DNA of 28,446 bases from a virus (Duplodnaviria; Heunggongvirae; Uroviricota; Caudoviricetes). The notes under the pieces are model-generated. The model was given only the letters and a program-made list of their open reading frames with translations, was not told the origin of the DNA and did no database searches. Shown here piece after piece: positions 22,145 to 22,234 of the stretch. Location of the stretch: the IMG/VR virus record IMGVR_UViG_2622736468_000007; one strand, written 5' to 3'. The position numbers were made by a program, and so were the translations under genes. Within the stretch, counting starts at the first letter, position 1; each line of letters begins with the position of its first letter.

Positions 22145-22234
22145 ACAATATGTACCTCCGGTGTACATATTACATGATTGAAATGAACCTTCAAGATACT
22201 TGTACCTTAACGGTACAAGGGTTTTAATTTCGTT
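22145..22234. promoter_or_regulatory. divergent cro/cI promoter-operator region with two TGTAC-N7-GTACA palindromes
   Basis: AATATGTAC-N7-GTACATATT (22147-22171) overlapping a minus-strand TTGAAG-N16-TAATAT promoter; CTTGTACC-N5-GGTACAAG (22199-22219) overlapping a plus-strand -35-like TTGTAC. Confidence 0.55.

Follow-up and report, generated by a model that had tools for sequence, protein, structure and literature searches.

The closest described relatives of the locus analysed here are the cryptic prophage e14 of Escherichia coli K-12, which carries the genes cohE (ymfK) and croE (ymfT), and the Shigella serotype-converting phages SfV and SfIV. The GenBank record of SfV (U82619.2) contains a regulatory feature named 'putative operator region' at 26377..26445. 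The cI and Cro of SfIV were reported to be identical to those of SfV, and no N, cII or cIII homologues were recognised (PMC3851460). In a second system, the PaaR2/YdaS/YdaT switch of the cryptic prophage CP-933P of E. coli O157:H7, the PaaR2 and YdaS proteins give footprints on overlapping palindromes between the genes (PRM/PR) and at a PL promoter, and paaR2 is leaderless (PMC8630535). The window studied in this work is the whole 28,446-nt (28.4-kb) stretch of the IMG/VR virus record IMGVR_UViG_2622736468_000007, in which positions 22145-22234 constitute the 90-bp gap separating divergent cro-like and cI-like genes. Two palindromes in this gap had been proposed from the DNA letters alone to be operators of the cI/cro control region (the original prediction). 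The gap belongs to the e14/SfV immunity module as its operator region; this region is already known, forms part of K-12 and for two decades has carried the annotation of putative operators. The palindromes and the related sites described below are very likely to be the operators of the immunity switch of this e14/SfV-type lambdoid prophage.

In an alignment with MG1655 the window was 100 % identical to e14 over a stretch that begins inside ymfT, spans the intergenic region completely and reaches into ymfK; the genes on both sides are the cohE and croE of that prophage. For the 1.25 kb around the site the identity was 99 % with the Escherichia phages PhiR29 and PhiR49, 98–99 % with SfIV and SfV, and approximately 96 % with the phages 2H10, Ayreon and cdtI and with several Stx2c phages. 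Of 5426 complete E. coli genomes, 1323 (about a quarter) carry no less than 80 % of this 1.25-kb region; the RefSeq gene names there are ymfK, ymfT and ymfL. The 'putative operator region' of SfV corresponds by alignment to 22150-22218 of the window, i.e. it runs from the start of the first palindrome to the end of the second. With its near-identical repressor, Cro and operator DNA the locus is of the same immunity type as e14 and SfV. The prophage around it is not e14: the window departs from the K-12 sequence downstream of the pL leader, and it carries other early-region cargo and Q antiterminator, RusA and KilA-N genes. Since the remainder of the prophage is not e14, the immunity module is a mobile cassette within a mosaic lambdoid prophage.

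Both palindromes were read as proposed, with arms of 8–9 bp and a common TGTAC/GTACA core; they are called O1 and O2 here (Table 1). Palindrome 1, AATATGTAC-ctccggt-GTACATATT, has perfect 9-bp arms (22147-22155 and 22163-22171) and may be extended to 15-bp arms with 87 % complementarity. Palindrome 2, CTTGTACC-ttaac-GGTACAAG, has perfect 8-bp arms (22199-22206 and 22212-22219). An exact TGTAC-N7-GTACA lies inside each of them, at 22151-22167 and 22201-22217, respectively. The search for this motif across the whole prophage, which had been suggested as a check, gave 4 matches with at most one mismatch in the window in comparison to 0.61 expected, and none of 100 shuffled sequences contained four or more. 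Three of the four matches flank the cI-like gene; the fourth, at 15524, is unrelated and probably due to chance. A position weight matrix (PWM) trained on the relatives only was then run over the approximately 28,400 positions of the window, with 200 shuffles as the background. Ranks 1 to 3 were occupied by O1 (26.5 bits), the OL1 site at the pL-like promoter beyond cI (25.7 bits) and O2 (22.6 bits), all above the best score in the 200 shuffles (19.5 bits). Matches at 25654-25674 (9.7 bits) and at 22598-22618 inside cI (8.3 bits) were at chance level.

A scan of one genome per species gave 16 other loci with cI homologues of 73–88 % amino acid identity in Pseudocitrobacter, Klebsiella, Atlantibacter, Leclercia, Phytobacter, Enterobacter, Pantoea, Trabulsiella, Kluyvera, Limnobaculum, Rahnella, Edwardsiella and other genera. 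At all 16 loci (2–3.7 kb each) TGTAC-N7-GTACA with up to one mismatch occurred only at the positions homologous to O1, O2 and OL1, and additionally at that of a second pL-side site, OL2, in two of them (L015 and L019). The sites were thus present in every homologous immunity region examined, and the O1-O2 distance was exactly 50 bp in all 16 relatives. Conservation was calculated over 17 distinct intergenic sequences from Enterobacterales, with CI proteins 73–100 % identical. The left half of O1, the TACA of its right half and the left half of O2 were 100 % conserved and the right half of O2 98 %; expressed as a fraction, half-site conservation was 0.89–1.00 versus 0.49 for the O2 spacer. Such invariant arms around drifting centres are, as judged from the alignment, the signature of a dyad recognised by protein and not of an RNA stem. 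The conserved unit in these alignments is the 17-bp TGTACC-N5-GGTACA, wider than the TGTAC core. At the second position of the right half-site G or A is tolerated: SfV, Ayreon and several species have ATACA in O1, where the window has GTACA.

The reach of the motif was followed further by tblastn with the N-terminal 75 residues of the repressor against other phages. The N-terminal domain of CI is 55–59 % identical in the Pseudomonas aeruginosa phages vB_Pae_CF3a and LESphi3, where TGTACC-tcctg-GGTACA covers the cro Shine-Dalgarno sequence and TGTAC-N7-GTACA adjoins cI, with an O1-O2 distance of 51 bp. In a Vibrio phage (56 % identity) the motif is partly kept, as TGTACG-cgttt-GGTACA adjoining cI together with a degenerate O1. 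The Stx1 phages and mEp506 have 42 % identity in the same domain; in mEp506 the recognition-helix region differs (SPSQLTQVS versus EPTQTSRFM) and the repeats are unrelated. Very distant CI homologues, from Comamonas, Variovorax and Giesbergeria, are accompanied by other palindromes and hence a changed specificity. On this evidence the motif tracks the repressor/Cro lineage, not the host.

The positions of the sites relative to the promoters also agree with the original prediction, according to which the palindromes overlap the cro-side −10 and the cI-side −35. O1 lies on the −10/+1 region of the putative pR and O2 on the −35 of pRM. The hexamers of pR are kept in the relatives, and pR itself was below the threshold in the consensus promoter scan. 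The −10 of pRM ends 6 nt before the cI ATG at 22235, and the same distance recurs in 15 of the 16 diverged relatives; the sequence of these 6 nt is 45 % conserved among the 17 sequences. The cI mRNA had been proposed to be leaderless. Mapping of transcription start sites in K-12 by differential RNA sequencing placed ymfK among five mapped leaderless mRNAs, with a leader below 10 nt (Romero et al. 2014; PMC4681348). Because ymfK was mapped as leaderless in K-12 and the sequence there is identical, the proposal has experimental backing.

The flanking genes code for the proteins expected of such a switch, a divergent CI-type/Cro-type pair with a 90-bp regulatory gap. The cI-like protein matches Pfam Peptidase_S24 (PF00717, 1.5e-26, residues 93-212), and in an alignment with lambda CI its VQA-G, GDSM and TFKRL motifs fall on lambda VQA-G (the cleavage site), GNSM (Ser149) and TFKKL (Lys192). 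The corresponding residues, Ala100-Gly101, Ser138 and Lys176, mark it by sequence as a self-cleaving repressor, and the closest solved relative of its C-terminal domain is that of lambda CI (1f39 and 3bdn; E 2e-9 to 3e-8). On the opposite strand the Cro-like protein of the YdaS family is followed by a CII-like one. The pair of an S24 repressor and a divergent YdaS-family Cro, together with the overlaps of palindromes and promoters, supports the proposed geometry of an OR-type switch: dyad operators of approximately 17 bp lie over both divergent promoters, two of them strong and one weak.

The weak one was found in the gap between O1 and O2, where OR probably holds a third, weaker site in addition to the two proposed originally. 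This candidate middle site is the fourth best PWM match in the window (11.4 bits) and its centre is located 43 bp upstream of the cI ATG, which is also the transcription start. Its left half, TGAACC, is invariant (17 of 17 sequences), and in all relatives the equivalent position scores within the top 0.1–0.5 %. A better copy, TGTACC-gtcaa-GGTTCT, stands at the equivalent place in the Pseudomonas phages.

A second cluster of operators was identified at a pL-type promoter beyond cI, where the motif ATGTACCC had been predicted to recur twice. Both copies were found, at 22955-22962 and 22975-22982, 20 bp apart. They are not mere half-motifs as the original prediction implied: the first is the left half of a full near-palindromic operator, OL1, and the second belongs to a degenerate one, OL2. 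OL1 occurs in 16 of 16 relatives, mostly with a perfect GGTACA. OL2 ranks ninth among the PWM matches in the window; there, and likewise in 11 of the 16 relatives, its offset scores within the top 0.1 %. All relatives keep the pL-like promoter, and in the record of phage Ayreon a terminator and a promoter are annotated downstream of cI. The middle OR site and OL2, both partly conserved, have a somewhat better than even chance of being weak operators. Counting these two weak candidates, three OR and two OL sites would make up a lambda-like arrangement.

Table 1. Coordinates of the predicted regulatory elements and genes of the immunity region in the window
Feature	Position	Strand	Description
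cII-like gene, ymfL type	21343..21912	-	Downstream of cro on the pR transcript; Pfam Phage_CP76 (CII), 1.3e-13
cro-like gene, ymfT/croE type	21944..22144	-	66 amino acids, YdaS-family helix-turn-helix; ATG at 22144; annotated ymfT / Cro
O1 (OR1-like operator)	22147..22171		Core TGTACC-tccgg-TGTACA at 22151-22167; takes in the final base of the pR −10, the region where pR starts and the cro Shine-Dalgarno sequence
cro Shine-Dalgarno sequence, GGAGG	22155..22159	-	Inside the O1 spacer; CCTCC invariant in all relatives
pR-like promoter for cro/ymfT (putative)	22167..22194	-	−35 TTGAAG 22194..22189, 16-bp spacer, −10 TAATAT 22172..22167; start predicted near 22160
Candidate middle operator (OR2-like)	22184..22200		TGAACC-ttcaa-GATACT; degenerate, centred on the pR −35, in the 33-bp gap between O1 and O2
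O2 (OR3-like operator)	22199..22219		Core TGTACC-ttaac-GGTACA at 22201-22217; left half also serves as the pRM −35 (TTGTAC)
pRM-like promoter for cI/ymfK	22200..22228	+	−35 TTGTAC 22200-22205, 17-bp spacer, −10 TTTAAT 22223-22228
cI-like repressor gene, ymfK/cohE type	22235..22909	+	224 amino acids; N-terminal DNA-binding domain and C-terminal S24 autocleavage domain
Intrinsic terminator after cI	22921..22947	+	From terminator scan; annotated terminator in SfV and phage Ayreon
pL-like promoter	22949..22976	+	TTGACA, 16-bp spacer, CATAAT; 11 of 12 consensus matches
OL1 operator	22956..22972		TGTACC-cctga-GATACA (TGTACCCCTGAGATACA), one mismatch; fills the pL spacer and the start of its −10
Candidate OL2 operator	22976..22992		TGTACC-caagc-GAAACA; 20 bp from OL1; over the expected pL start (~22983)

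From these features we infer a working scheme for the switch; it extends to the pairing of proteins with sites, the order in which the sites fill, activation by the middle site, and any cooperativity or looping between OR and OL, which lie some 800 bp apart. The most likely readers of the 17-bp dyad are dimers of the CI-like protein (YmfK/CohE type) and, in competition with them, the Cro-like YmfT/CroE. In the lysogen, repressor bound to O1 would cover the −10/+1 region of pR and the ribosome-binding site of cro, while repressor on the weaker middle site would cover the pR −35; occupancy of both would silence the operon of cro, the cII-like gene and the lytic genes. Binding to OL1 and OL2 would silence pL by covering its spacer, −10 and start. 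From the middle site, 43 bp upstream of the cI start, the repressor might also stimulate its own weak promoter as lambda CI does at OR2. O2, on the −35 and spacer of pRM, would act in an OR3-like manner: excess repressor would turn down its own gene there and/or Cro would turn cI off. Under the SOS response the S24 repressor would cleave itself, which would empty the sites and start lytic transcription. Release in this way fits the finding that the division inhibitor of e14 is SOS-inducible yet not LexA-repressed (preprint 10.1101/2020.11.19.390815).

Several points weigh against this interpretation. The searchable literature yielded no direct binding or reporter data for these sites and no report of YmfK or YmfT binding to DNA. 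The YmfT regulon has been only inferred, in the iModulon study, where e14 genes are co-expressed with SOS genes, and in a massively parallel reporter study the gene set of the YmfT iModulon showed no consistent footprints, a result considered inconclusive by its authors. CI and Cro homologues change together with the motif in every comparison, and because both co-vary with it, sequence comparison cannot tell CI from Cro as the reader of the sites. The middle site and OL2 score just 7–12 bits, values sometimes reached by shuffled sequence, and OL2 is lost in several relatives, with the left half alone in L007, L010, L012 and L021 and a weak site in L014. Finally, the most symmetric site sits on the pRM −35, where tight binding of CI would conflict with steady transcription of cI in the lysogen; for this reason the hierarchy of occupancy cannot simply be read from symmetry.

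Another reading is that the locus represents an uncharacterised and widespread immunity class (in phages of Enterobacterales, Pseudomonas and Vibrio) with a logic unlike that of lambda, marked by the rigid 33/17-bp spacing of three OR operators, the most perfect dyad on the −35 of the maintenance promoter and a two-site OL. This is possible, although the odds are clearly against it. If true, the dyad on the maintenance-promoter −35 would build strong negative autoregulation, or a Cro-first lock, into the switch, and K-12 itself would harbour a switch of non-lambda architecture as a model that is genetically tractable and still untapped. We take the locus for an ordinary lambdoid switch, which is what had been read originally.

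Slightly less probable, and on balance rather unlikely, is that the sites belong to just one of the regulators or that the two regulators use different subsets, e.g. Cro the perfect O2 and CI the sites of the ATGTACC type, O1, OL1 and OL2, where in lambda both share all sites. The base preceding the left half is in line with this idea, as it is A in O1, the middle site, OL1 and OL2 (ATG(T/A)ACC) and T in O2 (TTGTACC). This flanking A is not invariant, however, since it differs in L017, L019 and L021, and all the strong sites have the same 12 conserved half-site positions. Moreover, in the characterised lambdoid switches both proteins act on the same operators. The data on CP-933P can be cited on either side: the PRM side is where the Cro-like YdaS binds first, and the stronger repressor of PR is the CI-like PaaR2, but both proteins share the operators (PMC8630535).

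Of the remaining explanations the least improbable, although very unlikely, is that the palindromes act as RNA hairpins, O2 as an intrinsic terminator or O1 as a structure hiding the cro ribosome-binding site. The terminator scan did flag a terminator-like hairpin at 22199-22219 with GGTTTTAATT behind it, and the O1 spacer does hold the cro Shine-Dalgarno sequence. Against this, the arms are invariant without covariation while the loops vary, the T-run after O2 is absent in relatives (e.g. GGTACACAATGTTTAAT or GGTACAGGCTATGTAAT), and the same dyad recurs inside the pL promoter spacer. By the promoter geometry O2 would be upstream of both starts and hence transcribed from neither pR nor pRM, and the pR start would fall inside O1 and leave a single arm in the cro mRNA. 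O2 as a Rho-independent terminator was rejected, given no conserved U-tract, no covariation and no upstream gene on that strand.

Still more improbable is that the palindromes serve host LexA, as SOS boxes, or some other factor of the host, the prophage repressor binding elsewhere. The dyad contains TGT...ACA and in the YmfT iModulon the e14 genes share their expression with SOS genes, but no CTGT-N8-ACAG match with up to one mismatch was found in 22145-22234 or 22949-22992, the TGT/ACA spacing being 11 and not 8. The motif also follows the phage CI/Cro lineage over Escherichia, Pseudomonas and Vibrio and is gone where the recognition helix differs, and the e14 division inhibitor, as mentioned, was reported not to be under LexA repression (preprint 10.1101/2020.11.19.390815). 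A functionless product of chance or GTAC-rich composition is effectively refuted: short two-copy palindromes are common and the match at 15524 is probably one such accident, but neither the number of matches nor their scores were reached in the shuffled sequences, and position, spacing and half-sites are kept in 16 diverged loci and in Pseudomonas phages while the spacers drift.

As operators of an e14/SfV-type switch, the sites may be compared with those of lambda: OR2 of lambda stands 42 bp before the start of cI, and the candidate middle site 43 bp. Further likenesses are the divergent cI and cro genes approximately 90 bp apart, the 17-bp dyads over pR and pRM, the operator cluster at pL downstream of cI, the leaderless cI mRNA and an S24 repressor aligned on the cleavage site, Ser and Lys. 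There are also differences. The operator sequence is unrelated, TGTACC-N5-GGTACA versus the TATCACCGCCAGTGGTA-type sites of lambda, and the centre-to-centre spacings are 33 and 17 bp (O1-O2 = 50) versus 24 and 23 bp. O1 sits on the −10/+1 of pR, whereas the lambda site is located between −10 and −35; the most symmetric site here is the OR3-like one, and OL has just two evident sites. Instead of a protein like lambda Cro there is a helix-turn-helix protein of the YdaS family, and no N gene has been reported for SfV and SfIV (PMC3851460).

CP-933P resembles the locus in having a YdaS-family Cro-like protein with a CII-like partner opposite a CI-like repressor with a leaderless mRNA, and it is the best experimental model for a Cro of the YdaS type. 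It differs in that its repressor operon has a toxin-antitoxin pair, while the repressor here is a lambda-like S24 protein. The phages vB_Pae_CF3a and LESphi3 share a homologous Cro and the same motif at O1, the middle site and O2, but have no TGTACC-type site within 130 bp downstream of their cI, where TCTGTATATACAGA palindromes are found instead. At two Pseudomonas phage loci (L109 and L111) two copies of such a palindrome, TCTGTATATACAGA / TGTATATACA, lie approximately 30–90 bp downstream of cI, ahead of a gene for a BrnT-like toxin; rather than an OL, they may form the operator of this toxin-antitoxin pair.

The immunity module is very common, being carried by K-12 e14, the Shigella serotype-converting phages and the Stx2c and cdtI phages. 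To its description this work adds a 17-bp consensus in refined form, two further sites of lower strength, a fixed O1-O2 distance of 50 bp and the finding that the motif extends to phages of Pseudomonas and Vibrio. The practical value lies in annotation, since the consensus and the map of five sites provide targets for studying how YmfK/CohE and YmfT/CroE control e14 genes; among these are YmfM, the division inhibitor inducible by SOS, and the 'YmfT iModulon'. A further use of the map is in predicting superinfection immunity groups among Stx- and O-antigen-converting phages.

Several other features of the window were recorded in the course of the analysis. The pL leader (22983-23062, plus strand) is conserved across genera and comprises a block, AACAGGCAGGACGCCCACGAAGTAGCC, then a hairpin, CCUGG-[12 nt]-CCAGG, at 23024-23045 and then GAUGAUUCG. 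In an alignment of 11 sequences three stem pairs of this hairpin are changed on both sides (in 7, 2 and 6 sequences) and none is broken. Folding of the single sequence was not significant (z = −0.6), the covariation being seen in the alignment only, and Rfam gave no family match in OR, OL or the pL leader. The element could serve in antitermination or as a regulatory RNA in phages reported to be without an N gene. Farther downstream, at 23066-23098 (plus strand), a hairpin, AAGCGCCCTATAGGACGCTT, precedes GCTCTTTAACAA at 23087-23098; read on the opposite (minus) strand, this hairpin has the form of a terminator. GCTCTTTAACAA has its sole copy in the window here and is common to many IMG/VR relatives; we take it to resemble the boxA element of rrn and lambdoid nut sites. 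On the pR side there was no second copy of the pL-leader element or of the boxA-like sequence.

Convergent to pL, at 23317-23796 (minus strand), is an open reading frame of 159 amino acids with no Pfam match, a RefSeq hypothetical protein at the place occupied by ymfJ in e14. It looks like a cargo (moron-like) gene in place of the usual early-left genes.

On the other side of the immunity region a strong LexA-box-like sequence, CACTGTTCATAAATACAGTA, with an exact CTGT-N8-ACAG, is located at 20090-20109, between the KilA-N and RusA genes and approximately 90 bp upstream of the KilA-N domain gene (19177..20004, minus strand). This may be a KilA-N/antirepressor-like gene under LexA control, which would provide a second SOS input for the prophage. 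Rfam matches at the gathering threshold, all on the minus strand (1336-1534, 6327-6443, 11977-12407 and 16200-16639), comprise an IS009 sRNA, an ALIL pseudoknot (a frameshift element of the IS3 type) and two cspA-thermoregulator 5' untranslated regions, the latter pointing to cold-shock-protein-like genes inside the prophage.

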